Assembly: GCA_032718475.1 (NCBI GenBank)
Contig: JAUCBJ010008990.1
Location: 1 to 55,323, forward strand
Source: Nemertoderma westbladi
Taxonomy: Eukaryota; Animalia; Xenacoelomorpha
DNA: 55,323 nucleotides
Direction of reading: 5' to 3'
The position numbers were made by a program, and so were the translations under genes. The notes under the pieces are model-generated. The model had not been told where the DNA came from. It did no database searches and worked only from the letters and a program-made list of their open reading frames with translations. Positions 20,022 through 55,112 of the stretch are shown one piece after another (within the stretch, counting starts at the first letter, position 1; the number at the start of each line of letters is the position of its first letter).

Positions 20022-20153
20022 TCAATTGGACAACTTGACTACGCAAACACTCCTACAGTCCTATTAAAAATAATAGGGAGACTACACCATCGACTTCGTA
20101 GGGAGTGGAGAAAGATCGAGTACCAGCGAGAAGAAACAGGTGGATTTTTAAGA

Positions 20154-23100
20154 TTGGAAGATGTGTACCTATTAATATCTAGGGAGGCAGTAGTAGAGAC
20201 TCGTTCGAACTACACGGATCAACACATTATAGCCGAAGGTATAACTTTGCCATCGACCAACCGACAAAAACCACAGACGACATCTACAAGGATGGTCACC
20301 TACGCTACACCGACGGAAACCCGACAATTTTCTGACGGTTATAACGTGTCCGCACCCATTGGAATCAAACAGACTAGGCAGCAACTAAATGCCGACTTCA
20401 GCTGTTGTCAATACTGCGAGCGGATAGGTAAGCGACACACTAGTCACAAGTTAAGGGGATGTCGACTATTTCGTGAGTTAAACTCAGAAGAACGAAGACT
20501 ACAGATACGATCATTGGATTCTTGTTGGAGGTGTACGCAACACGGACATGTCCGAAAGGATTGCACAAATACGGACACCTGTCCTTCCTGTGGACGCAAT
20601 CATGACGGTTTGCTCCACACCGATAGTCATACACCGACGAAACGCTTCACCAGGGAACACCCAGAAGCAGCAGCGAAGTGCAACACTGCGTACAAGACGC
20701 GAGAGTCAAAGACAACACCAACCTTTGTGACGCATATTCGGGATTGTTTCCCAGAACAATCCGGGTCTTTAGATGAAGAGTCAGAAGACGACGACGCTTA
20801 TTTCAACACTGGGGACGAACAACCATCGATTGCGCTTCTGACGCCTGATCAACTAAAGGGATTTAGCGTAATTCCCGTTAAGATTACGGGCACAAAAGGG
20901 AGCAAGCGGATCTACGCTATTTTAGATTCAGCCTCATCTCACAGCTATGTGGACGAGAAGGTAGCTGACGTCGTCACAGATCTTCAACAAGGTAAGCACG
21001 TCAGTTATACCGTAAGTAGTATGCATGGACAACGTACAATACCAGTGACAAGAGTTAAATTGAACTTAGACACTCTTCTTCCGAAATCGCAACATAGCGA
21101 AAAGGAGAGGTCTTTGTTACCCTTTAAGGATTTAACCTTTGCGGCAACTAAGGACTTTAGTAACCTACTGGGTCCAGTGCCAGAACAATCCTTAGAGGAC
21201 CGTAAGTATTTTAGACACCTTGGTGTACCTGAATGTCCTGTTAATTATAGGTCAGTAGCAATGCTGATCGGGACAGACCAATTCAACTTACATCAAGTGT
21301 GGGAAACCAGACCATCGGTAGTCGTAGCAGGAAACGCATACGCCTGCAGAACGCCGATAGGGTGGTATACTCGAGCGCCTGTGCGCACACTAGATATAAG
21401 TGACGAGGAAGATGATGTGCAAAGTACATGTAGTTTATTAACTACAACTTCGACTCATTCTTTTTCAAACGACATTGACTATACTACACGCCAAAATTCG
21501 ACAAAACACGACAAAGTGACAAGTACGACATGTGTGGCAAGTACAATAAGTCAAAGGGAGCAGAAACCACTTTACAAAGAGGTAAGTTTAGAGATTGGGA
21601 AGGAGACGCATCAGGCAGAGGATCCATCAACGATAGATGATAATGCCGGAAGGCTTGCGAGTCTACCTCAACCAATAACCTTATCAACACCTGTCGATGT
21701 CGACACATTAAGGAATTGTCAAGTGGAACAAGCTGCACTGGACAAAGAATTAACAGAGAAAACTATCAAGTGGTTGGAACAAGACACAGCCGAACCTGGT
21801 AGTTACGAACCATGCATGTCGGAACAAGAAAAACAATCCTTAAAGATCATGGAAGATACTATCCATCAGACGAAAGACGGACATTATGAGGTAGGGATGC
21901 TATGGCGTAACCAACGTCCTAAACTTATAAATAATTATCCGCTAGCCTTAAGACGTTTAAACTCAATACGACAACGTTTATTAAAGGACGAGAAAGCCCA
22001 TCTGCAGTATAATACTCAGATGGAGACGTATTTGACAAAAGGGTACGCTATCAGAATGACAAACCCAGAGATTGTGACAGACCAGACATACTATTTGCCA
22101 CATCACTACGTGAGACACCCTGACAAACCAGATAAGGTACGTGTAGTAAATGACTGCGCGGCTCTGTTTGAGGGAATGTCTCTCAATACGGAGTTGATGG
22201 ATGGACCAAACATGAATAATTATCTCATGGGGGTGATTATGCGCTTCCGTCAACGCCAAGTAGCATTTACTTGCGACGTCGAAGCCATGTTTCACCAGGT
22301 GCGAGCGTTAGAGCGAGACAGAGACAGTTTGAGGTTCCTCTGGTACCTGGATGGAGACTTAAGTCAACCACCGGCGACTTACCAAATGCAAGTTCGCGTA
22401 TTCGGTGCCAGAGACAGCCCAAATTGCACTATGTACGCCCTAAAGCAGACCGCTAGGGATCAGAAACATAAGTATGACCCAGAGGTAATCCAAGTAGTAG
22501 AACGAGACTTTTACGTTGACGATGGATTACAAAGTTGCGACACAGTAGAACGTGCCATTACAGTAGCACATCAATTACGGGACTGTTTAGCAGGCGGAGG
22601 TTTTAACCTCACCAAGTTTGCTTCGAACAGTACCGAATTAGTAAATTCATTCAAAACGACTGAACGTGGGGGTGGTGACATTGACTTGGAATTCGAACCA
22701 CTACCGACGACAAAGGTGTTGGGACTATTTTGGGACCCGAACACAGACAACTTTCGAGTGAAGGTAAGACTGGACGCTCAAGGAGATTCTCTGACAAAGA
22801 GGTCTTGCTTGTCAAAACTAAGTAGACTGTTCGATCCATTAGGTTTTATCAGCCCAATAATACTGCAAGCAAGAATATACATGCGCAGTATTTGGAAAGA
22901 TGGACTGACATGGGACGAACCGATCTCATCAGAACAAGTAGACTTATGGAAAACTTGGGAGGCGCAATTATCTTCGCTAGAGGATTATTCCATACCCCGG
23001 GTGTACTTTCCATTACAGACGACATTTCCTGACAACTTAGAATTACATTGTTTTTCCGACGCCAGTGACAACGGCTTTGGAGTGACAGCGTATTTGCGCA

Positions 23101-25754: not shown

Positions 25755-26419
25755 TGAGGAGTTTACAAATAGATTTCCACGTACCTGTACACTGTAGTAA
25801 AGACAGCGATAGAATTCCATTGTCTTTATATGTGAACATTGAGGGTAGTACCCTTATGTGTCACATAGGAGCGGGATTTGTAGGTATAAGAAATGGAATT
25901 CTACTTGGAACTCACAATATTGAGACATTTTCGAAATTTTAGACAATCCATTTGGATTTGAAAAATTTTAAAATTTTCTCCAGTGAATATATTTCAGGGT
26001 ACAGTCGGGTGGAACTTAAAATTAGAGAAACAAGAGAATGGAAGACTCGCGAGCCTTTCTTAAAATTTAATTAAATTTTACACGGTCTTGTTTCAAAAGT
26101 TACGTCAACAAATAGACTTCCCTATATTTATTACTAACTCTTGACTGCTTATTTTCTGATAATAGTTTGGGATCAAAAAGTGAGTATTTTAGACTCACAG
26201 CCAGTTTAGCCCAAATTCGTTTTTTATTTCGGCAAAAAAAAATTTTAGATAAGAAACAGTGTGTCATTAAAGAAACCCTAGATCTTAGGCTATGGGTAGG
26301 AGGTTAGAGCGTTGTCGAGCCAAAAGGGCAGACGAAAACTCTCACATCTCCTCACAACTAACAATAAACTCTGTTGTATTCCCTCTAGTAGTAATGATTA
26401 TGTAACCATACTTCCAATA

Positions 26420-29400
26420 ATGGCGAAAGGGATACATGGAGAGCCGAGATGAGATGATATCCAAGAGGAAGCAGCAGCTCCATTCAAAAGATTCGGTGCA
26501 AAGGATTACACCATATTCGGAATAAAGGATTTATCAGAAAGTACAGCAAAACTCGCAAAGACTAAATATTACTCGACGGTATTAAAGAGAAGGCAAAATG
26601 CGTTAAGTGAAAGGATCGAAAGTTTACGTAAAACCTTCAACGAACTTTATCCGTACGATGCTTTATGTGATATGGGAGATATCAGTGAAGACCCCGATAC
26701 CGAAATTAGTCGTTTGTATCATACCATGCAATACCTGAAGGCACATGAACGTATGCCTGCGGTACGCGATGAATTCGATGGAATGCATCTTTACAGACGA
26801 ACTCGAGGAGACAATAGAGAAACGAAGGAAGCCTTTTCAGTTTACAAACTTTATTATCAATGTGGTGCTTGTATGCGCGAACAACAAAAGGCGATTCCGA
26901 TGCATTTGAATAAGGAAAATCCCGAACCGATATTGGCGAGGTGTTCGAACCATCAACAACTACGCTACCAGGAAGGAGGGTATCCTTTATCTAATCCATA
27001 TCATTCATTTGCTATGTGTGGACCAAAGGCGGGAGAAATTGTCGTTTGTCCACCTAAGATTGTTGAACCCGATGCATTTGAACTTACGCTGGAAGAGGTG
27101 ACTCAGTCAACCCGCGAAAAGAAAGAAGCTCTTAGCCTATACAGAGCCTATAAGGCTTTCGAGAAAGGTGATATGGAAAAATGGGGCGGAAGACTCGCGA
27201 GCCTACCTTACCATTGGACGTTATTCAGAGACTACAGTTTGCATCCCTGGAAAGGACAAGAGAAATGCAACCGCATAGTACTTCGACTACGACACTCAAT
27301 TTCCCTATTAGTGTACCAGTTCGACAAGACACGACGTATGAAATACCTATTGTGGATCATCCGGAAATCATTTCAAACTTAGAGTTTCTTCCTGCAGTTG
27401 TTCTAAGTGATATGGTTAAGATATATGATTTACGTAGACATATTACGCAAAAGGTCGTGCATAATGTTCCGCCTCATATTCAAGACTTTAGGGAACTGGA
27501 TAGAGCTGGCGCTGATATAGCTCCGAGTAACTTAAGAGGATATCTGACCAGAACAATTCGTTTGTGGATCGGAACAGGAACCTTTGAGTCGGATACAGAC
27601 ATCGCTACGAACTGGCAAGGTAAAATCATTCGCTTCGAGGACGAGAAGGACATAGAGAAGATTTGGCAACCTTCGGAAGAATTATTGGACGAATGGAACA
27701 GAACATTTAGATCGTTTCAGGAAAATGGTTACATGTTTTATGACAACGAGGGCGGCAGCCATCAACAGAGTCTGACTTCCAAGACTATACAAATTAGAGC
27801 GGCAGACGGAGTTCTGCACGTTTTCAGTAGACAAAGGAGCGACAAGCGAATGCCGATACCTCCAGGAAATACCAAGCGGCACCATCTCATCACTAATATA
27901 ATAAAGAAGATGGACCAAGCCTGCGATATTGATGCTAGGATGTTACCGAAGATGGTCAGAAATATCATTTTAGATAAAACCGTTGTAAAGATTGGATCAG
28001 GAGTTAGAGAGGATTTAATTAGCGACTTTGCCAGCATGTCGGACAGTGACGACCGATTACCGACACCTTACGTCGACACCCGACCTCTTATACTGTGGTC
28101 CATAGAACAAGGATACTTCCGTGAGTATGATACTCAGAAGACCGGAACTGGATACATTTCCTACCTGATGTTTAATTGGGATTACAAGGAAAGTAAAAGA
28201 ACAAAGTATATCTAAACGTATGGAGAAGGTGATACTCCAGATAAAAACGAGTTTGAATCACAGCTCAAATGGAGAGGATGCGTGTATTGGGCTATTACTT
28301 CACCTCCAAGGGCGGTACTACAATATTATTTAGCGATAGAGTCATCGGTGAATGTTTGCTTGATCGCCGACATTGTGTCTCGGACTCTAAAACGACATCC
28401 ACTTTGCCTCGGAGAAGATCATACATTCTACGCGGAAGGGAGAATTCATACTGACGTGTTTAGACGATTTCTCGAACCCTTCTACAATTCCGACGCTCAG
28501 TGCAACGCCTTTACTCGAGCAGGATTTAGTATATTTCGAGACGTGTATCTTCGCTGTGCGGGATCTCTTATCGAAAGACCATCTATGTTTACAATATTAC
28601 CTTATGAAGGAGAACGTATCGTGGAGGTTATCGACGAATCACGGCAGACGCGCGCGCCTATCGGTCACTTAGGTGATGATTCCGACTTAACGACGACCAT
28701 CGATGATCCTCTAGAGGAACTTCTTGAGATTGAAAGGAACCTCCCGAAGAAATCTCAGATGGAGATTCGTCAACTTGAAGCAACAGATGCTGTAGTTTGC
28801 ATACAACCTTCTGAAACATACCAACCTATTGATCCAGACGATTATGACTATAGTGTGGGAGGAAGCGCTCGACCCATTGGAGATCTCATATATGAGTGAG
28901 TGTGGTACCCTGCCAATACGATGTGTGGTAAATGTGGTGTCGCTGGACATCATTCGACGAAATGCAGTGGAAACACATTACTACGACTCAACTGATTTGT
29001 GGATGGTGTGGAGATCAAGGGTCCCATACATTTTATACTTGCTGGAGATTTATGGCTCAATGCACATATTGCAATATAAAGGGACATTGAGCATCTGAAT
29101 GCCAACTGCGAGACATACCATACGAACACGAATCTGTAAAATTAGTGCGAAAACTGTTTGATGATTGGGAAGATTTGGCTGACGAACATGTATCGGCGCA
29201 AAGAAGACGGTTCCCAATGAGGGCACATCTTGGATTTTGGGCGGTAAACCCTCAAACTATGATGTCGGAAGGATATATCTCCGCTATGCCACAATATGAC
29301 GAACTAATCGAGGTAGTCGATATTTTGCCTCATGATAGTGGATTTAGAGTCGTGCGCGAATATTTGCTACAGATTCATCCCGATAATAAGAATACATGGA

Positions 29401-29855
29401 ACTTCCAGAAAGTCATTAATCGTATCACATATGGTGAATTCGATCGATTCCGAACAGAAAAGCGGAACAAGGGAGCTTGGTTAACCGTCGCATGGGCGTA
29501 CCGAGCCGCATTCTATTACAATCGTATACGAGCGAGCGTATTCGAGGAAGAGGAGATCCTAGAGGCGACCAACATACCAGCTACTCCGGTTGCGCCGTCT
29601 GCACGCCACCCTCGAGAGGACGGACAGAATAGGATTATAAGGGTTCAGAAAGTGAGCCAACAACTAAAGAAAACTATAAATGTTGAAGAACGAAGGGGAT
29701 ATGAACCGACTATTCGAGTTACTCGGGATATGGTATCACTTCCCAGAGAACCGCAAGGAGGATTAGGCCGCTTCCCGCGCGTTCCCAGACGTTTTGCCAA
29801 CAGTGGATACAACCAGTCGGTCACGAGGAGTCGGACGAGGATTTGGGATTACTAG
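26420..29855 (+). pseudogene. Disrupted accessory ORF of the BEL element: DEDDy-type 3'-5' exonuclease-like domain plus three zinc knuckles
   Basis: FYDNEG (ExoI-like, D 27742, E 27748), TIQIRA, LPKMVRNIILDKTVVKIGSGVRED (ExoII-like), YVDTRPL, W..PP...QYYLAIE (ExoIII-like); knuckles CGKCGVAGHHSTKC 28924-28965, CGWCGDQGSHTFYTC 28998-29042, CTYCNIKGH*ASEC 29061-29102; several in-frame stops and two frameshifts. Confidence 0.72.
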
Positions 29856-34761: not shown

Positions 34762-37047
34762 TCACCAATCAACCCCATCAAACAGTCCGATGTAGTGGAA
34801 GGGTGTGTCCATGGTTCCCACCACCGACGCCGCGTTTCCCATGAGAATTGCCACCGCCAAGCGTTGCAGCAAAAACTGGTGCGACCGTTGCTCATGGGTC
34901 CGAGCATGAAGACGCGCCCCGACTTCCTGGAGGAAGCTGGCAGTCTCGGGTCCGGGTCGACCAAAGGTCTCAAAGGCCACGGGACTGAAGTAGCAGCGAC
35001 CACGCTCTACCAACTCGCTATACTTCCTAATCTTCACCCGCTCAGCCTCCTCAGCAGCACGGCCACCAGCGATGAGGGTCTGCTGGAGATGACTCGGGGC
35101 GAGGGGATCCGTTACGGTTGCGTCCCAGGCCAATGAGCGGCCGCGGTTCCAAGGCATCACTGTAACCCCGTCAACCCTCTTACCATCGCTCCGACAGAGA
35201 CCTGGGGGCTCAAGGATGGGGGACACCCCGCAGCTGACCAGCGCCCGCCTTACTATATCGTTCAACATAGCGTGGCGGGGATGCCGGCCAGCGCTCCTCT
35301 GGCAGCAGATACCATGGAGACCATCAGCAGCTACCAGGCTACCACAGCGACAGGTATGCGGCTCGACTACCTTACTTCCCAGCCGCATGGCAACGGCGAT
35401 GCGGAACTGGCTGTCATCCAGCTTCAGTCCCAACGACGAGATGGGTAGAGCACTGAGCCAGCATCCGGCAACTGGGTGGTCCAGGGAATTTAACCTAGCA
35501 AGGTCGACTGGGGATGCAACTAGACGCAGCGCTGCGAGGTTAGCCGAGTGGACTGGGGCCACCCACGCACTCTGAGCAGTCGTAGAGGGTAGAGTAGCGT
35601 CCGAAGGGAGGGAGGATATCCAGAACTCCCGGGCCAACTCGTTGGTTGGGCTCACCACCCCCACTGAGTGGAGCAGGCGGTCGGACAGAGAAGAACAGGC
35701 AGCCGCGGAAGCCAGGAAGGCGGATGGTGCGAGCTGCACTGCCGAACTCAGTCCGAGACCGCCCACCCGTGCGGGGAGGCAGGCCTGGTCCCAGGCTGGG
35801 TCGCTGATATTAGTGTTAGCGACTTCCTGCAGGGTACTTCGGAGGATATCGTCGTAGTTCTTAAGTGCTTCAGGGAATAGGAAGCACGGCGCTGTCCGGA
35901 GGAAATAGGTTAGCCGAGGTATGGCAAATGAATTCTTTAGGAGGAAGAAGCCGTGGTGGGCATCTAGTAGAGGTATGCGGCAGGCTAGGGTCGAGAGGTC
36001 CCCTATCTTTGATGCGAGGCAGGATGCTATAGCGGCATCACCAATGGGGGCACCCAGCATTGACAGCTGTTCAAGGGGTGGGTACTTGATACCAGGGCAG
36101 ACTGAGTTGAACTCCAACTGGATACGGGCGCGAGATTCCTCTGTCTCCGGCCCTAGGAAGAAAAGTTCACTCTTCCCAGGGTTTATCCTCAACCCGCACT
36201 TCCCCCCCTCAACAATCACTTCCCGCAGGTCCTGCAGAACCACATGGTAGTCATCCGCCAAGTTACCGTCATCAAGGTACCAGACATTAAAGCTGGACCG
36301 CCTAGCCTGGACGACGGGGTTTACGGTATCACCGAAGAAGGGCGGTCCGTCCGAGTCCCCCTGCTGCACTCCCTCGTCCGAGAGGAGAGTCTGGGATCCG
36401 TGGAGGAGGAAGGATGCCTCCCCGTAGGCCGCTAGAGTGTAGTTATACACGGAGGGGTGCTGGTCGTGGACGGTCTCCAACATGGTATCCCGGCGGATAG
36501 AATTAAAAGCGTTGCTGAAATCTATTTTCAGCAACACTGTCCCAGCCGGGTTCTCCCTCTCCGTCAACGCTCTCACAGCATGTTCTGCGGCTTCCGCTCC
36601 CAGTTTACAACCAATACCTACTTGCACCGACCCATAAGAATGGGTGCGATCCTCCCCCACCAGGCGCCCGGCAAACTTTGAACAGAGTCTCCGTAGAGCA
36701 ACTCCAACAGCGATAGGCCTGATGCCTCCTCCGGTCTTTGTGAACGCGAAGAGGTTCGCCCCGAAGAAGAGGGGACGGATGGCAACCGGCACATCCCCCG
36801 CAATAGTGACGTCCACGAAATGAGAGAGGGTGGAAAGCAGTCGCTCAGCAGCCCCGCCGTTCGTTGGGCTGACAACGTCTTTAAAGATTTGGGGACGCAC
36901 ACCATCTGGTCCTCCTGCACTACCGCAAGGGAAGGACGAAATCAACTTCCGCAGCACCGCGGGGGAGCATGGCTTCGCGGATGAGTTTACTGGCGGTGGG
37001 GGGTCTCTCCGGTCGACGGGCCTGATCGGGTGTTTATCCCGCAACAT
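34762..37047 (-). CDS. Reverse transcriptase + Zn motif + restriction-like endonuclease
   Basis: SAGGPDG, GIRPIAVG, KIDFSNAFNSI, GVQQGD, WYLDDG, GGLGL, CRC..H..C..RH, RVDGVT..PW..G..LAWDAT, E..KIRKY, PVAFETFG. Confidence 0.92.
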   Translation of the reverse strand: MLRDKHPIRPVDRRDPPPPVNSSAKPCSPAVLRKLISSFPCGSAGGPDGVRPQIFKDVVSPTNGGAAERLLSTLSHFVDVTIAGDVPVAIRPLFFGANLFAFTKTGGGIRPIAVGVALRRLCSKFAGRLVGEDRTHSYGSVQVGIGCKLGAEAAEHAVRALTERENPAGTVLLKIDFSNAFNSIRRDTMLETVHDQHPSVYNYTLAAYGEASFLLHGSQTLLSDEGVQQGDSDGPPFFGDTVNPVVQARRSSFNVWYLDDGNLADDYHVVLQDLREVIVEGGKCGLRINPGKSELFFLGPETEESRARIQLEFNSVCPGIKYPPLEQLSMLGAPIGDAAIASCLASKIGDLSTLACRIPLLDAHHGFFLLKNSFAIPRLTYFLRTAPCFLFPEALKNYDDILRSTLQEVANTNISDPAWDQACLPARVGGLGLSSAVQLAPSAFLASAAACSSLSDRLLHSVGVVSPTNELAREFWISSLPSDATLPSTTAQSAWVAPVHSANLAALRLVASPVDLARLNSLDHPVAGCWLSALPISSLGLKLDDSQFRIAVAMRLGSKVVEPHTCRCGSLVAADGLHGICCQRSAGRHPRHAMLNDIVRRALVSCGVSPILEPPGLCRSDGKRVDGVTVMPWNRGRSLAWDATVTDPLAPSHLQQTLIAGGRAAEEAERVKIRKYSELVERGRCYFSPVAFETFGRPGPETASFLQEVGARLHARTHEQRSHQFLLQRLAVAILMGNAASVVGTMDTPFHYIGLFDGVDW

Positions 37048-37714
37048 CGAACAATGTGTCTGGGGTGTCTGGCGCTATGGTGTCCCTGCAGGAAGCCAAC
37101 CGGATGGCCCGCTTTGACGTCACCATCCTCTATCTTCTCAGCAACGGCATTCACAGGCGCGTTGCCTCGACGTGGGCCTGCCTTCTGCGACCCTGCGGCT
37201 CCGGTCGCGGTGGACTGAACCCCACGCGAATGTAAACCCGGAAATCCGAAATCAGCTGGTTGACCTTGGAGGCCAAGGAACGATGATGTTTCTTCCCACC
37301 GTGGCTGGGCGCTGGTAGGCAACAATGCCAAACCAAGAGAAGACATGTCCAGTTGTGAACATTCGTAGGGTCGCCCGCGATTGCAGAGAACAGATCCGAC
37401 AGTAGATCCGCTAAATTGGCCCGCGACGCCTTTGGGATGTGCCGTAGCTGCCGGGTTCTCCAGCCCTTCAGCAGCGCGAGGACTTCCCACTCCGTGGTAG
37501 CGTCACTAACAGTGGGGGGTTACCACTACGTGGTAACCCCCCACTAGATCCCAGGACTGTTGGGGCCGCCCCTGGGGCACCATCTGAACCGGAATACCTC
37601 TGGGAGTGTTTCCCATGGACATGAAGAGGACCATTGAACTTTATCGAGATCATCTTTCCACAAACAGGGCATACTCCTCCGGGGGGACGTGGTCGATCAC
37701 TGGTGGACTAAATT

Positions 37715-40700
37715 AGGGGACCACGACCAGGGGACTGGGACACCCGACCTGGGGACACCATAGACACCCGACCTGGGGACCGGGACACCCGACATGGGGA
37801 CACCCGACTTGGGAACACCCGATCTGGGGACACCCGAATAGGCAACACCCGACTTGGGGACACCTGGCTTTGGTACAACCGATTTGGGGACACTCGCATA
37901 TGACTGGGGGAATCCCCACAAAGCAACTCGCGACCATAGGACACACGACCCGAGTCCTCCCACCTCACTTGACATGGAGACATGCGACCAGGGGACCAGG
38001 ACACCCGACCTGGGGTCACCCGAAATACCCGACCTGGGGACCGGGATGCCTGACCTGGGGATACCCGACTATGGGACACCCGACCTGGGGACCTGGACAC
38101 GAGACCAGGAGACCGGGCCACACGACCAGTGGACCTGGTCACGCGGCCTGGGGACATCCGGCCTGGGGACTGGGTGGCCCGACCTGGGGACACTCGACCA
38201 TGGGACACTCGACATGGGGATACTCGACCTGGAGACACTCGACCAGGGGACACTCGACCTGGGGACACTCGACCAGGGGACACTCGACCAGGGGACACTC
38301 GACCTGGGGACACCCAACTAGGGGGCAACTGACAAGGGTACAACCCACTAGGGGACACCCGTCTTGGGGGGGACACCCGAGTAGGGGCCTCCGGACCATG
38401 GGACACTCGACATGGGGACAGTCGACTTGGGGACACCCGACTTGGGGACACCCGACTTGGGGACACCCGACTTGGGGACACCCGAGTAGGGGCCTCTGGA
38501 CCATGGGACACTCGACATGGGGAGACTCGACCTGGGGACATTCGACCTGGGGACACCCGACAAGGGTACAACCCACTAGGGGACACCCGGCTAGGGGCCA
38601 CCCGACTTGGGGACACCCGAGAAGGGCCCTCCGGACCATGGGACACTCGACATGGGGACACACGACCTGGGGACACTCGACCAGGGGACACACGACCTGG
38701 GGACAACCGACAAGGGTACAACCCACTAGGGGACACCCGACTAGGGGACACCCGACTTGGGGACACACGACTTGGGGACACCCGACAAGGGTACAACCCA
38801 CTTGGGGACACCCGACTTGGGGACATCCGACTAGGGGACACCCGACTTGGGGACACTCGACCAGGGGACACACGACATGGGGACTCCCGACTAGGGGGCA
38901 TCCGCCAAGGGTACAACCCACTTGGGGACACCCGACTTGGGGACAGCCGAGTAGGGGCCCCCGGACCATGGGACACTCGACATGGGGACCGGGACACCCG
39001 ACATGGGGACACCCGACTAGGGGACACCCGACTTGGGAACACCCGATCTGAGGACACACGACTTGGGGACACCCGACATGGGGACACTCGGCCTGGGGAC
39101 ACTCTACCTGGGGACATTCGACCTGGGGACACCCGACTTGGGGACACACGACCTGGAGAAACCCGACTTGGGGACACTCGGCCTGGGGACACCCGACCTG
39201 GGGACACCCGGCAAGGGTAAAACCCACTAGGGGACACCCGACTTGGGGACACTCGACTTGGGGACACTCGGCCTGGGGACACTCGACCGGGGGACACCCG
39301 ACTTGGGGACACTCGACCTGGGGACACTCGACCATGGGACGCTCGACATGGGGACACTCGACCTGGGGACACTCGACCAGGGGACACTCGACCTGGGGAC
39401 ACCCGACCAGGGTACAACCCACTAGGGGACACCCGACTAGGGGCCATCCGACTTGGGGACACCCGAGTAAGGGCCTCCGGACCATGGGACACTCGACATG
39501 GGGACACTCGACATGGGGACACTCGACCTGGGGACACTCGACCTGGGGACACCCGACAAGGGTACAACCTACTAGGGGACACACGACTTGGGGACACCCA
39601 ACTTGGAGACACTCGGCCTGGGGACACTCGACCGGGGGACACACGACATGGGGACACCCGACTTGGGGACACCCGACTTGGGACACTCGGCCTGGGGACA
39701 CTCGACCAGGGGACACTCGACCTGGGGACACCCGACAAGGGTACAACCCACTAGGGGACACTCGACCGGGGGGACACCCGACCTGGGGACACCCGACAAG
39801 GGTACAACCCACTAGGGGACACCCGACTTGGGGACACCCGACTTGGGGACACCCGACTAGGGGACACTCTGCCTGGGGACACTCGACCGGGGAACACCCG
39901 ACTTGGGGACACTCGACCTGGCGACACTCGACCAGGGGACACTCGACTTGGGGACACTCGGCCTGGGGACACTCGCCCTGGGGACACTCGACCTGGGGAC
40001 ACCCGACAAGGGTAAAACCCACTAGGGGACACCCGACTTGGGGACACCCGACTTGGGGACACCCGACTTGGGGACACTCGGCCTGGGGACACTCGACCGG
40101 GGGACACCCGAGTTGGGGACACTCGACCTGGGGACACTCGACCAGGGGACACTCGACTTGGGGACACTCGGCCTTGAGACACTCAACCTGGGGACCCTCG
40201 ACCTGGGGACACTCGACCAGGAGACACCCGACTTGGGGACATCCGGCTTGAGGACACCCGACTTGGGGACAGGGACACCCGACTTGGGGACAGGGACACC
40301 GGACTTGGGGACAGGGACACCCGACTAGGGGACATCCGACTTGGGGACACTCGACCTGGGGACACTCGACCTGGGGACACTCGACCAGGGGACACTCGAC
40401 CAGGGGACACCCGACTTGGGGACACTCGACCAGGGGACGCTCGACTTGGGGCCACCCGACTAGGGGACATCCGACTTGGGGACACCCAACTTGGGGGTAC
40501 CCGACTTGGGGACATTCGACTGGGGGACACTCTACCAGGGGACACTCGTCCTGGGGACACCCCACCAGGGGACACTCGACTTGGGGACCCCCGACCAGGG
40601 AACACCCGACTTGGGGACACCCGCCTAGGGGATACTCGACCAGGGGACACTCGACCAGGGGACATTCGACTTGGGGACACCCGACTAGGGAACACCCGAC

Positions 40701-40830
40701 TTGGGGACACCCGACTAGGGGACACCCGACTAAGGGACACCCGACTTGGGGAGACCCGGCTAGGGGACATCCGACTTTGGGACACCCGACTAGGGGACAC
40801 CCGACTAGGGGACACCAAACTAGGGGAAAT
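37715..40830. repeat. ~3.1-kb GC-rich 15-bp minisatellite (GGGGACACYCGACYW) with higher-order variants
   Basis: About two hundred 15-mers; minus strand reads (RVSP[SG])n or (V[GE]CP[QL])n. Confidence 0.95.
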
Positions 40831-41352
40831 CCGACCAGCGAACAGGGACAAACGGGATGGAGAAACAGTAGCGGGGCCAGGATTACAATACGAAGAGTGC
40901 AATCCAAATCGGAGTCATCGAAGCCCGGTGTTAAAGTTACATCCATTACGTCGTCGAGTTCATCCAGAGTTGAATTCAAGCGCCCCTGCTCACCAACGAC
41001 AGTGGTCTTCCACCTGGGTGAGTGCGCGAGCAAGTAGTCCACGACGCCGTAACCCGAAGTTCGGCAAGACCCGCTGCGGCAAGTGCAGCAGAGCTGGGAA
41101 GGACCCATACGAGAATACTCGAGGTGAAACGTGGAACGAGTACGTGTCTCAACAGGAAATGCCGGCCGCCGGGGCCAGGTAGGTCAGAGAATCAACAAGT
41201 ACGAGAAGCAGATAGCTGACTCAGATTCGAGCAGTATTACCGGTATTATTATATTATTTATTTAATAATCTTATCCTACTTATCCTTAATCTTGAACTAT
41301 TATTATTTTATTATTATTTTTTATATTTTTATTAATATTTCTCTAATTAACT

Positions 41353-41747
41353 ATGTATGGTTTAAATATTGTTAGCTATAACTGTAACTCTGTAAGAACT
41401 GCTCAGTTAATGTCAATCATTAATGTCATTAATTCATTCTATGTAAGAAGTGCGACATTATGCTTCTTCAGGAGCTCCAATTCCCCAAACAAAGAACTTT
41501 CTTTTTTGAACACAATAAACAATGATTTTTGGATCGTGGGTTTTCTACTGCTAACTATTCAGATGGTCTGCGGGTAGGAAGGCCAGCTGGAGGATTAGGG
41601 TTTTTATGGCGAAAGTCCATAACTCACTCTTTTAATATTGTTGATTTTAATGACCCACCACGCATTTGTGGTGCCTCTATTGATCTTTTGAATGTTGGTA
41701 AGTTATTAATTTTTAATGTTTATCTGCCCCATTATTGCCCTGATAAT
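41353..41747 (+). pseudogene. 5' part of a LINE APE endonuclease domain, interrupted by a TIR element
   Basis: NIVSYNCNSVR, CDIMLLQE, GRPAGGLGFLWRK, LLIFNVYLP. Confidence 0.75.
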
Positions 41748-42422
41748 GATAGAGGGCTGTTGCGCTGTCAGTCAGAGAGGTAACAGCCCGTGGGGTAAGG
41801 ATTTACCTCTGGGACCTGTATTAGGCAAAATAGCAGTCGCTGTGTAGGCCCTCCAGTATTGTGCACGGTACAAGACACGAAATTTAGCCCACATCTGTTA
41901 ATAATACACGGTTTCGCGGTACAAGACCATATTAAATTAGACCACCATCTGTAAAATGCTCGCCTGAGTTCAGGAGTTGCACAGATGTCAGGATGTGCTG
42001 ATTCTATATCACCCACTTAGCCCTGGAACTAGACCACTACAAAAACTGATGCGACAGAGCGAGGTACCGTTAGCCTAACATTTCTCGGAGGCTGGTCCGA
42101 TAACACTCAACGCATTGTTTGGTTGGACATTGACATTATTGCATTACAGTGTACATATTACATAGGCCTACTGATTAGTATGGATTGAGAAATTTGATAT
42201 ATTTGGACGTCAATGGATAGGTAGGTTAGGTTTGAGAAACTAATATCATATCCATATTTATGAATATTTATTTATTTGTACTTCCCTCCTGTTTCACTCT
42301 AGCATACTTGAGGCCATTAGGTCCGCTGTTAGAGATAGAATATATGCAACTTAAGACTGCCCGTTCAATAGAAGTGGATTAGGTGGGACTTTGAGTGTCA
42401 GGGGCTAGTGGCTGAGCTGGTT

Positions 42423-42468
42423 AGCGCTACTGATGAGGCCTGTTAGGCTGAAACGTACTTATAGCGCT
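42423..42468 (+). ncRNA. Type I hammerhead ribozyme, unit 1 (variant: G.U at the base of stem II, UUA site)
   Basis: AGCGCTA CTGATGA GGCCTGTTAGGCT GAAAC GTAC TTA TAGCGCT. Confidence 0.75.
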
Positions 42469-42764
42469 GGTTCAACCCCCGGTGACGCGCTCTCATTTTT
42501 TCCACTTCTGAACAAACCCATTATATTACACCTTTAATTACAGTTGCAACAGCTCATCTCCAATTTATTTAATTAATATCACCTGGCAGCAATACTCGAG
42601 CTGAATATTTATTTATTTGTACTTCCCTCCTGTTTCACTCTAGCATACTTGAGGCCGTTAGGTCCGCTGTTAGAGATAGAATATATGCAACTTAAAGACT
42701 GCCCGTTCAATAGAAGTGGATTAGGTGGGACTTTGAGTGTCAGGGGCTAGTGGCTCAGCTGGTT

Positions 42765-42810
42765 AGCGCTACTGATGAGGCCTGTTAGGCCGAAACGTAC
42801 GTATAGCGCT
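42765..42810 (+). ncRNA. Type I hammerhead ribozyme, unit 2 (consensus)
   Basis: Stem I AGCGCTA/TAGCGCT, CUGAUGA, stem II GGCC(U)/(A)GGCC, GAAA, short stem III AC/GU with GUAC loop, GUA site; predicted cut after 42803. Confidence 0.93.
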
Positions 42811-43105
42811 GGTTCAACCCCTGGTGATGCGCTCTCATTTTTTCCACTTCTGAACAAACCCATTATATTACACCTTTAATTACATTTGCAACAGCTCATC
42901 TCCAATTTATTTAATTAATATCACCTGGCAGCAATACTCGATCTTAATATTTATTTATTTGTACTTCCCACCTGTTTCACTCTAGCATACTTGAGGCCGT
43001 TAGGTCCGCTGTTAGAGATAGAATATATGCAACTTAAGACTGCCCATTCAATAGAAGTGGATTAGGTGGGACTTTGAGTGTCAGGGGCTAGTGGCTGAGC
43101 TGGTT

Positions 43106-43151
43106 AGCGCTACTGATGAGGCCTGTTAGGCCGAAACGTACGTATAGCGCT
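43106..43151 (+). ncRNA. Type I hammerhead ribozyme, unit 3 (consensus)
   Basis: Core identical to unit 2; predicted cut after 43144. Confidence 0.93.
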
Positions 43152-43446
43152 GGTTCAACCCCCGGTGACGCGCTCTCATTTTTTCCACTTCTGAACAAAC
43201 CCATTATATTACACCTTTAATTACAGTTGCAACAGCTCATCTCCAATTTATTTAATTAATATCACCTGGCAGCAATACTCGAGCTGAATATTTATTTATT
43301 TGTACTTCCCTCCTGTTTCACTCTAGCATACTTGAGGCCGTTAGGTCCGCTGTTAGAGATAGAATATATGCAACTTAAGACTGCCCGTTCAATAGAAGTG
43401 GATTAGGTGGGACTTTGAGTGTCAGGGTCTAGTGGCTGAGCTGGTT

Positions 43447-43492
43447 AGCGCTACTGATGAGGCCTGTTAGGCCGAAACGTACTTATAGCGCT
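43447..43492 (+). ncRNA. Type I hammerhead ribozyme, unit 4 (UUA variant)
   Basis: Core intact; GAAACGTACTTA weakens stem III. Confidence 0.8.
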
Positions 43493-43787
43493 GGTTCAAC
43501 CCCTGGTGACGCGCTCTCATTTTTTCCACTTCTGAACAAACCCATTATATTACACCTTTAATTACAGTTGCAACAGCTCATCTCCAATTTATTTAATTAA
43601 TATCACCTGGCAGCAATACTCGAGCTGAATATTTATTTATTTGTACTTCCCTCCTGTTTCACTCTAGCATACTTGAGGCCGTTAGGTCCGCTGTTAGAGA
43701 TAGAATATATGCAACTCAAGACTGCCCGTTCAATATAAGTGGATTAGGTGGGACTTTGAGTGTCAGGGGCTAGTGGCTTAGCTGGTT

Positions 43788-43833
43788 AGCGCTACTGATG
43801 AGGCCTGTTAGGCCGAAACGTACGTATAGCGCT
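43788..43833 (+). ncRNA. Type I hammerhead ribozyme, unit 5 (consensus)
   Basis: Core identical to unit 2; predicted cut after 43826. Confidence 0.93.
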
Positions 43834-44138
43834 GGTTCAACCCCCGGTGACGCGCTCTCATTTTTTCCATTTTTTTCCACTTCTGAACAAACCCATTATA
43901 TTACACCTTTATTTACAGTTGCAACAGCTCATCTCCAATTTATTTAATTAATATCACCTGGCAGCAATACTCGAGCTGAATATTTATTTATTTGTACTTC
44001 CCTCCTGTTTCACTCTAGCATACTTGAGGCCGTTAGGTCCGCTGTTAGAGATAGAATATATGCAACTCAAGACTGCCCGTTCAATAGAAGTGGATTAGGT
44101 GGGACTTTGAGTGTCAGGGGCTAGTGGCTGAGCTGGTT

Positions 44139-44184
44139 AGCGCAACTGATGAGGCCTGTTAGGCCGAAACGTACGTATAGCGCT
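44139..44184 (+). ncRNA. Type I hammerhead ribozyme, unit 6 (one stem I mismatch)
   Basis: AGCGCAA CTGATGA GGCCTGTTAGGCC GAAACGTACGTA TAGCGCT. Confidence 0.85.
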
Positions 44185-44498
44185 GGTTCAACCCCCGGTG
44201 ACACGCTCTCATTTTTTCCACTTCTGAACAAACCCATTATATTACATTTTTAATCAAAGCCAGAATTCCAGTACTGGAACCACGATCAACAATTTCGGAA
44301 GTAAAGACTCCATCAACAACAGTCGGGGTTTAAAAAATACAATCGAGGGCAACATTTAACTGGGCGATCATCTATCTGATAGTTGGAAATGAGTGTCTGA
44401 CAGTTGGTATCAGAGTGTCTAATAGTTAGCACCCCATGGGTAAATCATTACCCTATGGGCTGTTACCTCTCTGACTGACAGCACAACAGCCCCTATAG

Positions 44499-44740
44499 CT
44501 GATAATCGCGATGAATATAAACTTTTATAAACGTTTATAAACTGACTTAGTGGGTACTTATATTATAACTTAGTGGGTAAACTAACCGCTCAATACTCAC
44601 AATGTTTATTGATTGATGGTGACTTCAATAATGACCCACCTCTTAATATCTATGTAGAATTTAAACAATGGTGCAGTAGTGTTAATCTCACCGCAGCTGA
44701 TGTAAATGTTGCCTAATAATAGTTACACTTCTGTAATGTT
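44499..44740 (+). pseudogene. Continuation of the interrupted APE endonuclease remnant
   Basis: Resumes after the TSD with DNRDEY and later GDFN (GGTGACTTCAAT). Confidence 0.65.
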
Positions 44741-47811: not shown

Positions 47812-48727
47812 ATGTTATTAGAAATGCTTACATAAATGATTGTACTGCGTAACTAAAATATAGGCCTGGCCTACTTGAATTTTCGGAACAAAATCATTGC
47901 AATTTAAAGAGAAGGGGGGGGGGGGGGGGGCAACTAAACTCAATGACGCAAATCCCACCTGCTGACCTGAGCAAATCAACATTGGTAATTATTTATGGAA
48001 AGAAACAGGTTACAGTGGCAGGCTATGGTGTCTCTAAAGGGTCAAATATAAATAATAAAAACCTCTATGAAACAATAAAATGCTGCAGTAATAAATATTT
48101 GTTACTACTTTATTGTTTCAGAGGTTTTTATTAATATTAATTTTACCCTTTAGAGTCGCCATAGCGGGCTATTATGCAAGCAATCAGCTATTATGTGCTT
48201 CGATTTTCCCTTGGAGATGGTTGAATTTTGTTTTGTTGATTGCGTCTAGAACCCCCCCCCCCCCCCCCCCCACATCTCTATTTTCGAGTTAGTACGGCTT
48301 TTGTTGAGTGGTGAATTTGGTGAGCACCAAAATTTACATTTACGCCTAAAAATAAGAGTTACAATGATCTGGAGCATTATAAAAATTATTCCATTAGAAT
48401 CAGCACTCCTAGACATTTTTTGGGTCTGATTCAGACAAGTAAATGATAAGGGAAGGGTAATATGGGTCAATGCCAACCATATTGACCAATGTCTCGGAAG
48501 TTATTTTTGAAATTATCAAAGCCAACCAACCATTCATTCTCGAATGATTTACATTTTTGTATATTTTGTGTCTCGTACGTGACTTGGTCAATGGTCAATA
48601 CGGTTGGCATTTAACATATACAACATTTACATCCATAATAATAAATAACCTGGTATATACTGTACTGTAGTTACGAGGGAGGTTTTTATTAAACGTAATA
48701 CATTCAAAACGTGACGCTACTGTTAGA

Positions 48728-49511
48728 ATAGTACTTAAGTCATATCTGAACCAATATGAACCCAATCTGAACCCAATCTGACCGAATCTACTGTATATAC
48801 CAAATCTGAATCTAAAATAGAAAGAGGGGCGAAAATTATTAATTTTTGGATTCACAATTTTGAAATTTGAAGAAATTTTACATATTTATTTTCATATTTA
48901 AATTTGCCGGCAGCCGCGCTACTACTGATGTGTTGGGGAGTGACAACATACCTCAGTCAGTCTGTACATAGGCTACCTACATTACAGTTCTTACACCTCA
49001 AGGCCTACTACAGTTACTGCTGTACTGTGTGTATTCAGTCGTTAGCGTTATACTATACAGTAGCTACAGTACCTGGCTAGGGGTAGGCAGCATGGTAGCG
49101 AAACTGAACTTCAACGAGTCCCGTAAATCTGTAGTTTGTCAGTTGGGCTACCGCCTACCGGTACAAGGTAGCTATGAGCTATAACGCCAACGACTGCATA
49201 GGCCTCCATACATTACAGCCTCAGTAAATGTAGTAGGCCTGCCTGGAGCTGTAAGAATTGTAATGTAGGTAGCCTATGTGCAGATGTATGATGTCAGCAG
49301 TAGTACTGCAGCTGCAGTACAAATACAAATGCCGCAATACAAAATTTAAATATGAAAAAAGATATGTAAAATTTCTTCAAATTTCAAAATTGTTAATGCA
49401 AAAATTAATAATTTTCACCCTTCTTTCTATTTTCGATTCAGATTGGGTTCAGATTTGGTATAATTCTTGAGATTGGGTCCAGATTGGGTTCAGATATGGT
49501 TTAAGTACTAT
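48728..49511. mobile_element. Foldback MITE with ~175-bp imperfect terminal inverted repeats
   Basis: 48728-48906 (ATAGTACTTAA..TCTGAACCCAA repeats..ATTTAAATTTG) is the reverse complement of ~49340-49511. Confidence 0.8.
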
Positions 49512-50496: not shown

Positions 50497-50608
50497 TAAC
50501 TTTTTGTTGGGCACAGCTTTTGCAAAGTCGGCAATGACGTCCAGGTGGGATCGAACTGGTGACCTCCAAGTTGGAAGTCTGACGCTCTAACCATTCAGCT
50601 AGCGGCTC
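50497..50608 (-). mobile_element. tRNA-derived SINE head
   Basis: Minus strand GAGCCGCTAGCTGAATGGTTAGAGCGTCAGACTTCCAACTTGGAGGTCACCAGTTCGATCCCACCTGGACGTCA: A and B boxes present, acceptor stem unpaired. Confidence 0.7.
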
Positions 50609-50841
50609 AGGTAAAAGATAGACCAGGAAATACTATCTGATACATTGTATGTCCGCAATTTACATCCTGATGGCCTCACAACTGTCAATATGTTGCCACT
50701 GCGCTCAACCCTATCGTACCAGTATCTCACTAGTTCGATCCCACCTGGACGTCATTGCCGACTTTGCAAAAGCTGTGCCCAACAAAAAGTTATAATAATA
50801 TGAAACCACTTATTCACCACTTAATATGAAAACACTTATTC

Positions 50842-51395
50842 ACTACAATACCAATTATTATGTGTAGCAGAACTACATTACCAATTATTATGTGTAGCAG
50901 AACTACAATACCAATTATTATGTGTAGCAGAACTACAATACCAATTATTATGTGTAGCAGAACTACAATACCAATTATTATGTGTAGCAGAACTACAATA
51001 CCAATTATTATGTGTAGCAGAACTACAATACCAATTATTATGTGTAGCAGAACTACAATACCAATTATTATGTGTAGCAGAACTACATTACCAATTATTA
51101 TGTGTAGCAGAACTACAATACCAATTATTATGTGTAGCAGAACTACAATACCAATTATTATGTGTAGCAGAACTACAATACCAATTATTATGTGTAGCAG
51201 AACTACAATACCAATTATTATGTGTAGCAGAACTACAATACCAATTATTATGTGTAGCAGAACTACATTACCAATTATTATGTGTAGCAGAACTACAATA
51301 CCAATTATTATGTGTAGCAGAACTACAATACCAATTATTATGTGTAGCAGAACTACAATACCAATTATTATTATGTGTAGCAGAACTACAATACC
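50842..51395. repeat. 30-bp near-perfect tandem repeat, ~18 copies
   Basis: ACTACAATACCAATTATTATGTGTAGCAGA units; A-to-T variant at 50878, 51088 and 51268. Confidence 0.97.
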
Positions 51396-51399
51396 GTAT

Positions 51400-51534
51400 A
51401 TTATTACCCTGTTATTTTGTTATTTTTCCGGATATTTTAACCCGAGGAACAGGAACTAGCCGAGGCGCAGCCGAGGCTTTCCTGTTCCGAGGGTTAAAAT
51501 ATCCGGAAAAATAACAAAATAACAGGGTAATAAT
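51400..51534. repeat. 135-bp palindrome/hairpin, probable terminus of the Crypton-like element
   Basis: 56-bp arms 51400-51455 and 51479-51534 with only a GA/GA mismatch; centre GCCGAGGCGCAGCCGAGGC. Confidence 0.85.
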
Positions 51535-52749: not shown

Positions 52750-54157
52750 TTAAGACTTATTATTGAAAATAATATTGACAGGCGCGTGAAACTGTGCCCC
52801 CTGCAACAAGCTACTCATGAATTCAGACTTTGTTGACGGAATCTCGATATTCGTTTCTTGACGAACTGTATCGACTACTTCGTGACTCTCATTTCCTCCG
52901 CTACTCTTCGAAACTTCTCGCCCTGATACACATTGACTCAATATCGTACTCAAGGATCGCTGAGTAGTAGTCGATGGTCGGATGTAAGACGTTGTTGTTC
53001 CCAGATTCGCATGTCCCAACTGTATTTGGGCAAAATTGGATGGCTGTCCAGAATCAACTATAGCCTGCGCCGCCGTCTTCCGATAACTCATCAGTGTAAT
53101 CTTTCGATTATCTGTTGTCAATCCTGCACGGCCGAACAGATCCCTTAATATAGTAGGGAAGGTGTGTTTTCCAACCGGTTGCATGGTGTACCAACTATCA
53201 TCACGATTGGCCGGTACGGTTGGTTTGGGACGAACCCAAAATGGTGCTTCCTTGTCCATCTTCCCATCTGGAAATCTATGTTTAATGTAACACTCGAATA
53301 GAGTCACAGGACAACAAGTGCAATCTTCGGGAAACTCGAAAGCTTTCACAGGGAATTTTCTAGGAGCAGTAATACCCTTTCGAGCCTTCGTTATCCGCTC
53401 TTTCAACTGAAGATAGAACTTATCTTCTTGGATGCAATAATGTTTCGTAATGTCTTTGACACGCATTTGGCGCATTTCTACGCCAGGTCTTGTCCCAAAC
53501 TGAGTAGTAAGAACTAGATACAGTGTATCACGCAGCTGAAAATCCAAGTAATCCTTTGTCCTTCAATAATCTGAAATCCGACGCCTCTAATGGGTCACTC
53601 GAGTTAGCAAGGTTTCCTTTGCCCGATGCTTTTATTTGGGATAGACGGGCCCGGAGAATTTCTTTGGAACGGCTAAATTCTGGTAATTTAAGGACATCGC
53701 CATGCCCCAAGTCTTTAAAATGACGCAGCAAACCATAGAAGTAACTTCGTAGAGAAGTTGTCTCTAACTTTTCTCCATTTTTCTTCTTGTATTTACGAAT
53801 AAACCCATGAAAATTTATAGCCAGCACTTGAACAGATTGTTTATCTATATCTTCTGAGCATTTAACCAGATGAAGATAATTCTGAAAGGCAGAAACTGAT
53901 TGCCGAGTTGACTCAGTTGTGTTATGATTATGCGTTTCCATTAGATACTGGTCATCATCATCATTGTTTTGAGATAGGCGATTGCAAAAACGATCATCAG
54001 ATGAATTGTGCGGACCACTGACAAGGGGATATGTTTGAGTTTGACTCGCATCTTGATCTTCGACATCCGCTGAAAACATTGCTTCCAAATCACCCAAATC
54101 TGGACACTCGAAGCCTAGGCCTATTAAATCACTAGGCCTAAGCAATTGCGATTCCAT
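52750..54157 (-). mobile_element. Crypton-type tyrosine recombinase (DUF3504-like), with one frameshift near 53530-53547
   Basis: SLRSYFYGLLRHF; FGTRPGVEMRQM (R), RITKARKG (K), CPVTLFECYI, WYTMQPVGKHT, ITLMSYRKT, LGHANLGTTTSY (H, Y); no RT nearby. Confidence 0.82.
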
Positions 54158-55112
54158 CGATTTAACAAGAATTAGACAAAAGAAGTACCGGTACAGGTGG
54201 GCTTACTTCTTTCCTGTAGCCTATTCACTTCGAATCTAACTCTTAACTCTTGGTACCGTACTAACCCAGTAACCAGAGTAGCCTATCAACTCAACACTGC
54301 AACAGCACAACAGGTACCGACCGGTAGGCCTAAAGGCTAGCTTATTTATAGAAGTACAGTCAGTACACAGTAGATATGAAGTAGGCTATATATAGCAGTA
54401 TGCAGTACAGCAGTAGACTGGTAGAAGCATGGCTGCCTGTAAGTGATGAAGTGTGCAGAGTGCCAGTAGTGTGCAGAAGTGTGTACAGGTGTAATGTAGC
54501 CTATTGTGCATAGCATAGTGTTGTAGTGCAGTGTAGGGTTGAATATTCGGGAGGGGGTCTGAATTTTGACTGTCTAGTTTTTTAACGTAATTGTTGGTTG
54601 CTATCGCTTTCGTCCTTCTGGGCTCCTCCCGGAGGCGCACACACGAGGTGGACGTGTTCCCACCACCCTTGGGGCCAGTCCAACTGATGTTTCTTATCAG
54701 ACCATGCCGGAGGGTGGTCCGATGCTTCCCGGGTTCAATTTTCAATCCCCCGATCGCACTGGCACAGCTCGTCGCATGTGTAGCCAGATGGTCGGCTACT
54801 GTCAACTTACTGTGGCCTGACTGTACATTGAGCCAACTCAGAGAGTCAACCGGCAGGTGGACCAGTAGTTAACGACAAGGTGGTCAACATTCGAAGACAT
54901 TGAAAACAAGATATGTAGTCATGCTGAATGCATGAAGATTGATATTCTTAAGGATTTTGATGATCTATTTATCGCTGTTGTCGACCTAGAACGCAGGTTT
55001 AAAATCCTTACAGTTGAATATGAAGAAATGAAAAATGCTGCAGTGGCGAGGGATAATATACCTCAACTACAGGTAGCACAACCTGCAATTAGGGCTGAAC
55101 GCCCAAAATTAA

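Follow-up and report, generated by a model that had tools for sequence, protein, structure and literature searches.

Metazoan non-LTR retrozymes are described as tandem, non-coding units in the 150–450 bp range with a GC content below 50% and many genomic copies, each unit carrying one type I hammerhead ribozyme, which in the invertebrate form has a 2-bp helix III with a tetraloop, and their RNA is circularised by RtcB (PMC7229834). The terms 'Pol III', 'A box' and 'B box' do not occur in the main text of that paper, and a review, in its accessible sections, describes retrozymes as seeming to lack promoters and relying on read-through (PMC7761336). In the Sm-alpha repeat of Schistosoma the promoter precedes the hammerhead and comes to lie at the 3′ end of the cleaved monomer (PMC6765202), and the Sm-alpha head was read by tRNAscan as ~1,100 tRNA-Gln genes (PMC2770079). 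Hammerhead satellites of newt and axolotl consist of 330–350 bp tandem units with a palindromic helix III and cleave better as dimers; the transcripts reported for them are Pol II transcripts, and A and B boxes are not described in the available text of the two sources (PMC7229834, PMC6765202). Palindromic stem III and cleavage as a dimer are already known (PMC3088659; PMC7229834), and GUA has been named as a natural hammerhead triplet (PMC1636495). Satellites borne by MITEs (Xstir, miDNA4, pearl) and satellites related to tRNAs (Xenopus satellite 1, Hy/Pol III) are also on record, with no ribozyme mentioned in the parts of the source that were available (PMC9659126).

The repeat analysed here lies in a window of 55,323 nt of Nemertoderma westbladi DNA (contig JAUCBJ010008990.1), to which all positions refer unless another contig is named. 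It resembles non-LTR retrozymes in its tandem non-coding units, their size and GC content, one type I hammerhead per unit with a 2-bp helix III and tetraloop, a palindrome that allows dimers, and many genomic copies (PMC7229834). It differs from them in a full layout of A box, B box and terminator-like T6 run, retrozymes being described as promoterless (PMC7761336), in a predicted 341-nt circle that is not self-paired, unlike the highly self-paired circles of retrozymes, and in the position of the array inside an inverted-repeat DNA element. With the SINE-like repeats Sm-alpha and Sj-alpha it shares a tRNA-derived Pol III promoter and a type I hammerhead within one repeated unit, and a need for tandem copies to give a usable promoter. 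Sm-alpha had been cited as precedent in an earlier note on this DNA; the combination of promoter and hammerhead agrees, but the order differs, the promoter standing before the ribozyme in Sm-alpha (order taken from a review, PMC6765202), whereas here, in 6/6 units, the cut site comes before the B box and the cut splits the promoter. Compared with Sm-alpha by description rather than by sequence, the repeat also differs in that the ribozyme replaces the anticodon arm and in that T6 follows within 40 nt of the cut. Unit size, palindromic helix III and preference for dimers recall the newt and axolotl satellites, and a tandem array in an inverted-repeat element and tRNA-derived tandem units recall the MITE-borne and tRNA-related satellites, respectively.

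A natural hammerhead between A and B boxes was not found in the available portions of the literature, in which published invertebrate retrozyme sequences may contain one unremarked. In engineered cassettes for Pol III expression a hammerhead is set into the anticodon region, flanked by the A and B boxes; these are synthetic and trans-acting, whereas the repeat described here is natural, carries its cut site within itself and no longer has the cloverleaf. Because it departs both from the Sm-alpha order and from the self-paired circle, it is treated as a variant and not as a plain retrozyme or a member of Sm-alpha; judged by its sequence, it is a known type of ribozyme-carrying mobile repeat in rearranged form, with known parts in an unusual nested order.

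Array and module structure

The tandem array occupies 42261..44254 on the forward strand (5.8 copies of a 341-bp unit, 96% matches, GC 42–43%) and is taken as non-coding, since no reading frame of at least 120 aa was present in it. Both of its ends fall in the spacer, away from the cut site, and a target duplication, which in retrozymes is longer than 4 bp when present, was not found at either end. Six modules were delimited on the forward strand, at 42401..42501, 42743..42843, 43084..43184, 43425..43525, 43766..43876 and 44117..44217 (units 1–6). All six hold, in this order, an A box (offsets 9–20 of the module), a type I hammerhead with the core CUGAUGA at offsets 30–36 and a predicted cut after offset 61, a B box (offsets 69–79) and T6 (offsets 96–101), as the earlier note had claimed for every unit. 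The A-box and B-box starts are 60 nt apart, and the terminator, which had been placed about 20 nt beyond the B box, is present at a measured 16 nt from its end. The start sequence proposed as common to the units holds except in unit 4, which starts GGGT. Cleavage of a 101-nt module is predicted to give pieces of 61 and 40 nt.

Three of the six units (2, 3 and 5) carry an intact ribozyme. Unit 2 is the predicted 101-nt Pol III transcription unit described in detail below (A box, hammerhead, B box, T6), unit 3 served as reference for the alignment of contigs, and in unit 5 the T-run is doubled by a 10-nt duplication. In units 1 and 4 the cut site reads UUA instead of GUA, with loss of the stem III C–G pair, unit 1 having in addition a G–U pair at the base of stem II. 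In unit 6 the second pair of stem I is mismatched.

Hammerhead ribozyme

In unit 2 (forward strand), the 5′ strand of stem I (42765..42771) coincides in part with the 3′ side of the tRNA's D arm, and is followed by the type I core, a 5-bp stem II, GAAA, and a 2-bp stem III with a 4-nt loop (42772..42803), with the predicted cut after 42803 (GUA), and by the 3′ strand of stem I (42804..42810), which completes a helix of 7 bp. The type I features present are the CUGANGA core, GAAA, an NUH triplet, three helices and an open stem I, and stem III with its loop forms a perfect 8-nt palindrome. A scan of the window with Rfam at gathering level gave no matches; below that level, Hammerhead_1 (RF00163) aligned over its full model length to 42766–42809 at 23.3 bits (E = 8.4e-4), short of the gathering score of 34.

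Promoter boxes, terminator and tRNA ancestry

On the forward strand of unit 2, the A box lies at 42751..42762 (tRNA positions 8–19), the B box at 42811..42821 (tRNA positions 52–62), and the Pol III terminator-like T6 at 42838..42843, which is the sole run of at least four T in the unit with both strands checked. The boxes were searched with generic consensus motifs, and their layout was compared with dinucleotide shuffles: it was found in 0/100,000 shuffles of the 341-nt unit and 0/200,000 of the 101-nt module. On neither strand of the remaining ~53 kb of the window did a B box occur. Taken by itself, the A-box pattern is loose, with 27 matches in the rest of the window and in 3.5–6.7% of shuffles. 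A full type 2 Pol III layout with terminator is supported by the sequence, and the layout likewise supports the proposal that a ~100-nt Pol III RNA, predicted to cut itself into ~61 and ~40 nt, could be made from each unit.

Of 100 IMG/VR matches to a 16-mer pattern around the A box, 25 lay inside same-strand tRNAs called by ARAGORN, at an offset of 5–7 within the tRNA in the 24 cases tallied, which marks the 16-mer as a D-arm signature of tRNAs, and 20 letters of unit 2 are identical with the D arm of one fetched tRNA. In tRNA register the hammerhead does replace the anticodon arm, as had been proposed, but it replaces the variable loop as well, its 37 nt standing for the 22 nt of tRNA positions 27–48. 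The description of the unit as tRNA-like fits the D-arm and T-loop sequence but not the fold: no tRNA was called by ARAGORN, the Rfam tRNA model gave no match at E≤10, the pairs kept in tRNA register amount to 3–4/7 in the acceptor stem, 2–3/4 in the D stem and 3/5 in the T stem, and the cloverleaf and anticodon are gone. A tRNA-like fold was rejected, and the module is read as a tRNA-derived promoter rather than as a tRNA fold or mimic. In common with tRNA-derived SINEs, A and B boxes stand in a tRNA-derived head; a SINE body and a LINE-derived or A-rich tail are absent from the predicted Pol III transcript, in which T6 comes 16 nt past the B box, no run of at least four A occurs in the unit, and the spacer showed no likeness to a LINE tail in comparisons within the window.

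Predicted RNA folding

Stem III is seldom formed in the predicted monomer (p = 0.02), and unconstrained co-folding of two 101-nt RNAs gave a double hammerhead with both cores free, at −74.2 kcal/mol vs 2 × −31.6 kcal/mol; a pair of 101-nt RNAs is predicted from this model to adopt the active double hammerhead. The 101-nt RNA is no more stable than its shuffles (z = +0.24 to +0.66), and the same holds for the 341-nt circle (z = +0.38 and −0.36 against 100 shuffles each, without published retrozymes folded likewise as a control). Extra folding stability was rejected for the 101-nt RNA and for the 341-nt RNA in linear or circular form.

The earlier note had the A and B boxes pairing as distal stem I. 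The pairing is short, 3–4 bp between the end of the A box and the middle of the B box, and likely in 4/6 units, where the three outer pairs have p = 0.58–0.89, but it falls to ~0.25 in unit 5 and to 0 in unit 4. The paired positions are invariant in the contigs described below, so that no covariation signal is possible. The letters left free by the B-box consensus are those that the pairing needs, a combination found in 0/43 fetched tRNAs, a biased comparison set of prokaryote and phage tRNAs picked by motif. It is plausible on these models that the boxes are used twice, as promoter in DNA and as distal stem I in RNA.

Abundance and variation in public contigs

Units aligning to unit 3 were found in 2,512 contigs of run X1, 1,302 of run X3 and 119 of run X5, all DNA-type runs. 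The summed depth of the module in X1 and X3 was ~12,000–18,000× that of the unique flank, a rough figure that is inflated by overlapping contigs and is no copy number; it is, roughly, 20–30× the depth of the body of the enclosing element, against 6 units at the studied locus. No substitution at a frequency of at least 6% was found in T6 or in 43141–43167, a stretch that takes in the cut site, the 3′ strand of stem I and the B box, and the only A-box variant at this level was G>A at position 15, which keeps the purine, the 5′ half of the A box, outside hammerhead stem I, having no common variant. The common variants in the ribozyme are in loop 2 (40% in X1), a G–U wobble (27%) and a change in loop 3 (14%), which keeps the palindrome through G–U pairs; extra minor variants in the core and stem II (7–10%) were seen in X5 only. 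To judge from the sequence, the ribozyme variants mostly keep the fold.

Diverged copies retain mainly the module from A box through hammerhead to B box. All eight diverged X5 pieces listed span A box to B box, one of them beginning 3 nt into the A box, and in three of the eight the likeness is confined to ~43077–43174, with unlike sequence on either side, apart from 41 nt of likeness further upstream in one of these three when aligned to another unit. Among the loose-end consensuses listed behind the B box, 5/6 keep a T6–7 run. Contigs of 2.3–2.6 kb at single-copy depth contain one diverged module, which indicates that copies of the module are also dispersed. Some variants in X3 and X5 are without the A-box GG. 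In X5, a contig with 22% of the depth at its place carries 4 additional nucleotides in stem I.

Variable sites were counted at a threshold of at least 6%, with 20 nt dropped at each edge and without three sites at which the window alone differs (43046, 43074 and 43205). The proposal that the boxes are more conserved than their surroundings came out differently with the reference: they vary less than their immediate flanks (1/23 vs 12/36 sites, one-sided p = 0.008, for regions picked once the data had been seen), but no such difference holds against the full spacer (1/29 vs 11/200, p = 1.0; consensus-breaking sites, 0/23 in the boxes, p = 0.29). A block of the spacer downstream of T6 (43217–43300), in the same phase in each unit, likewise has no substitution of at least 6%, and within it a depth peak at 43220–43255 is as high as that of the module; this block may be a second functional element, for instance a promoter or a protein site.

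In run X4, assigned to RNA by guess only, one contig of 371 nt represents one unit closed on itself (341 + 30 nt). Its reading as a circle was rejected, since a DNA tandem gives the same and the contig break at 43141 follows the polymorphic site 43140 and not the cut site.

Pattern scans for a hammerhead core followed by a B box gave 6 viral and at least 118 metagenome loci. Among the 124 listed, 4 passed a loose stem filter, none of them with an A box, and 5 had an A box, all of which failed the stem filter. By blastn the 341-bp unit had no match of at least 24 nt in 224 loci. A junction motif had 5 viral matches, none with a hammerhead or B box by eye, and the terminal repeat of the enclosing element had 0 matches in the same collections; these collections are mostly prokaryotic, and the negative results say little about other animals. 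Separately, probable complete hammerheads unrelated to the 341-bp family, with all three stems passing the filter, were noted in a phage contig and a metagenome contig (L005, ~401–457, and L066, ~2001–2051, both on the reverse strand), and in two metagenome contigs (L012, ~1960–2080, forward; L024, ~1980–2100, reverse) a stretch resembling a hammerhead core with a good stem II is followed by a T-loop-like motif, stems I and III being weak and an A box not clearly present.

Enclosing element and the rest of the window

The array lies within a non-coding DNA element bounded by terminal inverted repeats at 41753..41813 (forward) and 44433..44494 (reverse), ~60 nt long and 90% complementary between 41754–41813 and 44433–44492. 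Together with a candidate 4-bp target duplication (41749–41752 and 44495–44498) the element spans 41749..44498. An 8-bp duplication (41740–41747 and 44499–44506) is the alternative; one X5 contig matches up to 44494, which favours the 4-bp duplication. The first 36 nt of each terminal repeat (41754–41789, 44457–44492) form an imperfect palindrome with 8-bp arms at its ends, after which a second short hairpin follows. Without the array the element measures ~750 bp, and it has the features of a MITE or non-autonomous element with terminal inverted repeats, namely the repeats themselves, no coding frame and many copies. Summed depth in X1 rises from ~25 outside the element to 5,000–13,000 in its body, and the element stands at 300–1,000× flank depth.

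Other copies of the element have different sequence just left of 44247. Since they differ there, and since the array ends in spacer without a duplication, the array is regarded as cargo in at least the studied copy. It is improbable that the element accounts for all of the family, because module depth is 20–30× body depth and single diverged modules stand in single-copy contigs. Spread of the array need nonetheless not go through RNA, given that it sits inside a high-copy inverted-repeat DNA element. The earlier statement that amplification needs read-through or Pol II was accordingly too strong, as it holds for RNA-mediated spread only and the DNA element offers another route.

The window as a whole is repeat-rich eukaryotic DNA with two non-LTR reverse transcriptases, a BEL/Pao element and a DUF3504 tyrosine recombinase, a content that points to an invertebrate animal. 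A search with the RTE-like protein gave no named matches. One non-LTR reverse transcriptase frame of 770 aa (Pfam RVT_1) occupies 34762–37074 (reverse), and fragments resembling, by eye, the C-terminal part of the same kind of element were seen at 2294–3530 and 5932–6657. The BEL/Pao element (Peptidase_A17, DUF5641) and the same-strand frames that follow it at 26453–29855 extend over 17164–29855 (forward); two frames scanned within the latter stretch (309 and 347 aa) matched no Pfam family. At 38178–40838, adjoining a reverse transcriptase, 177 copies of a 15-bp unit form a GC-rich, strongly A-skewed array with long open frames on both strands. Pieces of a Crypton-like tyrosine recombinase (DUF3504, Phage_integrase) lie at 52750–54202 (reverse), for which a homologue search returned nothing at E≤0.001. 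Long nested inverted repeats of up to 107 nt at 93% (47905–48280, 48728–49511, 50497–50792 and 51400–51534) and an array of 18 copies of a 30-bp unit at 98% (50842–51395) are probably further non-autonomous DNA elements.

Discussion

From its sequence, the repeat is likely to make a short self-cutting RNA. The account we lean towards, with modest confidence, is that of a very abundant repeat of the retrozyme or Sm-alpha type in which the ribozyme motif stands between A and B boxes and from which two kinds of RNA arise, a short Pol III product and unit-length pieces of read-through transcripts. TFIIIC would bind the two boxes, which are 60 nt apart, and transcription by Pol III would run from ~42742–42743 to T6, giving an RNA of ~100 nt. 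A cut after GUA would split this RNA into pieces of ~61 and ~40 nt, which stem I would keep paired. Cleavage would be easiest in a homodimer, as a double hammerhead formed through the stem III palindrome, and the cut ends would be of the kind that RtcB ligates, as at a tRNA splice site. The short product cannot carry a whole unit, so that RNA-mediated spread calls for transcripts that include two cut sites. Array-long transcripts, made by Pol II from the flank or by leakage through T6, would be cut into 341-nt monomers with the B box first and the A box last. Because the cut falls between the boxes, the promoter is made complete only in a circle or a tandem, in keeping with the tandem arrangement of the repeat. 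The monomer would be ligated into a circle and reverse-transcribed by a borrowed non-LTR enzyme into tandem copies, where the two promoter halves would be reunited; Penelope is the candidate reverse transcriptase of the literature. The array would have been captured by, or have landed in, the non-autonomous inverted-repeat element, which with unequal exchange would add a DNA route.

This account is favoured by the layout, present in 6/6 units and in 0/300,000 shuffles, and by the Rfam type I match. Metazoan non-LTR retrozymes, in the available description, agree with the repeat in unit size, in a GC content under 50% and in a helix III of 2 bp capped by a tetraloop (PMC7229834), and the variation among contigs, the retention of the module in diverged copies, the T6–7 runs, the dispersed copies and the dimer co-fold point the same way. 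Against it stand the folding of the 341-nt circle and 101-nt RNA, no better than that of shuffles, the array ends, which lack a target duplication and do not coincide with the cut site, and T6, which 40 nt past the cut would stop the very transcripts that retrotransposition needs. Box conservation that is not significant against the whole spacer, a spacer block (43217–43300) as substitution-free as the module, the loss of the A-box GG in some X3 and X5 variants, the stem I insertion in X5, ribozyme defects in 3/6 units and the fact that no Penelope element was seen in the window count in the same direction.

A more elaborate version, which we consider speculative and improbable, makes the repeat a chimera of tRNA and ribozyme. 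The hammerhead would have taken over the anticodon arm, the same bases being boxes for TFIIIC at the DNA level and forming distal stem I once transcribed, and an abundant ~100-nt Pol III RNA would dimerise through the palindrome, nick itself at the place of intron excision in a tRNA, with ends ready for RtcB, and act in trans as a maturase on the read-through transcripts of its own family, the split promoter being rebuilt only by circularisation.

A different possibility, which we hold to be unlikely, is a satellite with the ~100-nt self-nicking RNA as its sole product, multiplied only as DNA, through unequal exchange and through carriage within the inverted-repeat element, with circles and reverse transcription no longer involved. 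The terminator in 6/6 units, kept in diverged copies, an unstructured 341-nt circle and array ends without target duplication are what such a satellite would show; the element reaches 300–1,000× flank depth, and MITE-borne and tRNA-related satellites are on record in the available text of PMC9659126. It does not sit well, however, with a module depth that is, roughly, ~12,000–18,000× that of the flank and 20–30× that of the element body when only 6 units are present here, with element copies whose different sequence left of 44247 shows that the array is no fixed part of the element, or with diverged modules standing singly in unique sequence.

The boxes might instead be the fossil of a tRNA or SINE ancestor in an ordinary retrozyme without Pol III transcription, kept through the youth of the family and because part of each box lies in stem I, an explanation that is doubtful to us. 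Conservation that is not significant against the spacer, the lost cloverleaf, the occurrence of variants without the A-box GG and the contact of both boxes with stem I agree with it, as does the description of retrozymes, in the available part of the review, as promoterless and dependent on read-through (PMC7761336). Yet the 5′ half of the A box, which lies outside hammerhead stem I, has no common variant, the A-to-B spacing is within the working range, and the only T-run of the unit sits at the place of a terminator and is kept in diverged copies. Finally, chance likeness of the motifs to Pol III boxes in a GC-rich ribozyme region is barely credible and refuted as far as shuffles can refute it, for although the A-box pattern is loose (27 matches elsewhere in the window, 3.5–6.7% of shuffles), the A-to-B layout arose in 0/300,000 shuffles, the B box is found 0 times elsewhere in the window, and 20 letters agree exactly with the D arm of one fetched tRNA.

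The polymerase responsible for retrozyme RNA in animals is an open question, promoters being seemingly lacking in the review's available account (PMC7761336). A Pol III layout wrapped around a ribozyme, with its own terminator, makes this question testable on a 101-nt construct, the predicted species being 101, 61, 40 and 341 nt long. Should the boxes prove silent, the repeat would be an ordinary retrozyme with visible tRNA ancestry. If the account of a short Pol III RNA beside unit-length read-through pieces is true, a selfish ribozyme repeat would have gained a promoter by invading a tRNA gene, one sequence would be under DNA and RNA constraint at once, and ribozyme arrays would have a route of spread inside DNA transposons.
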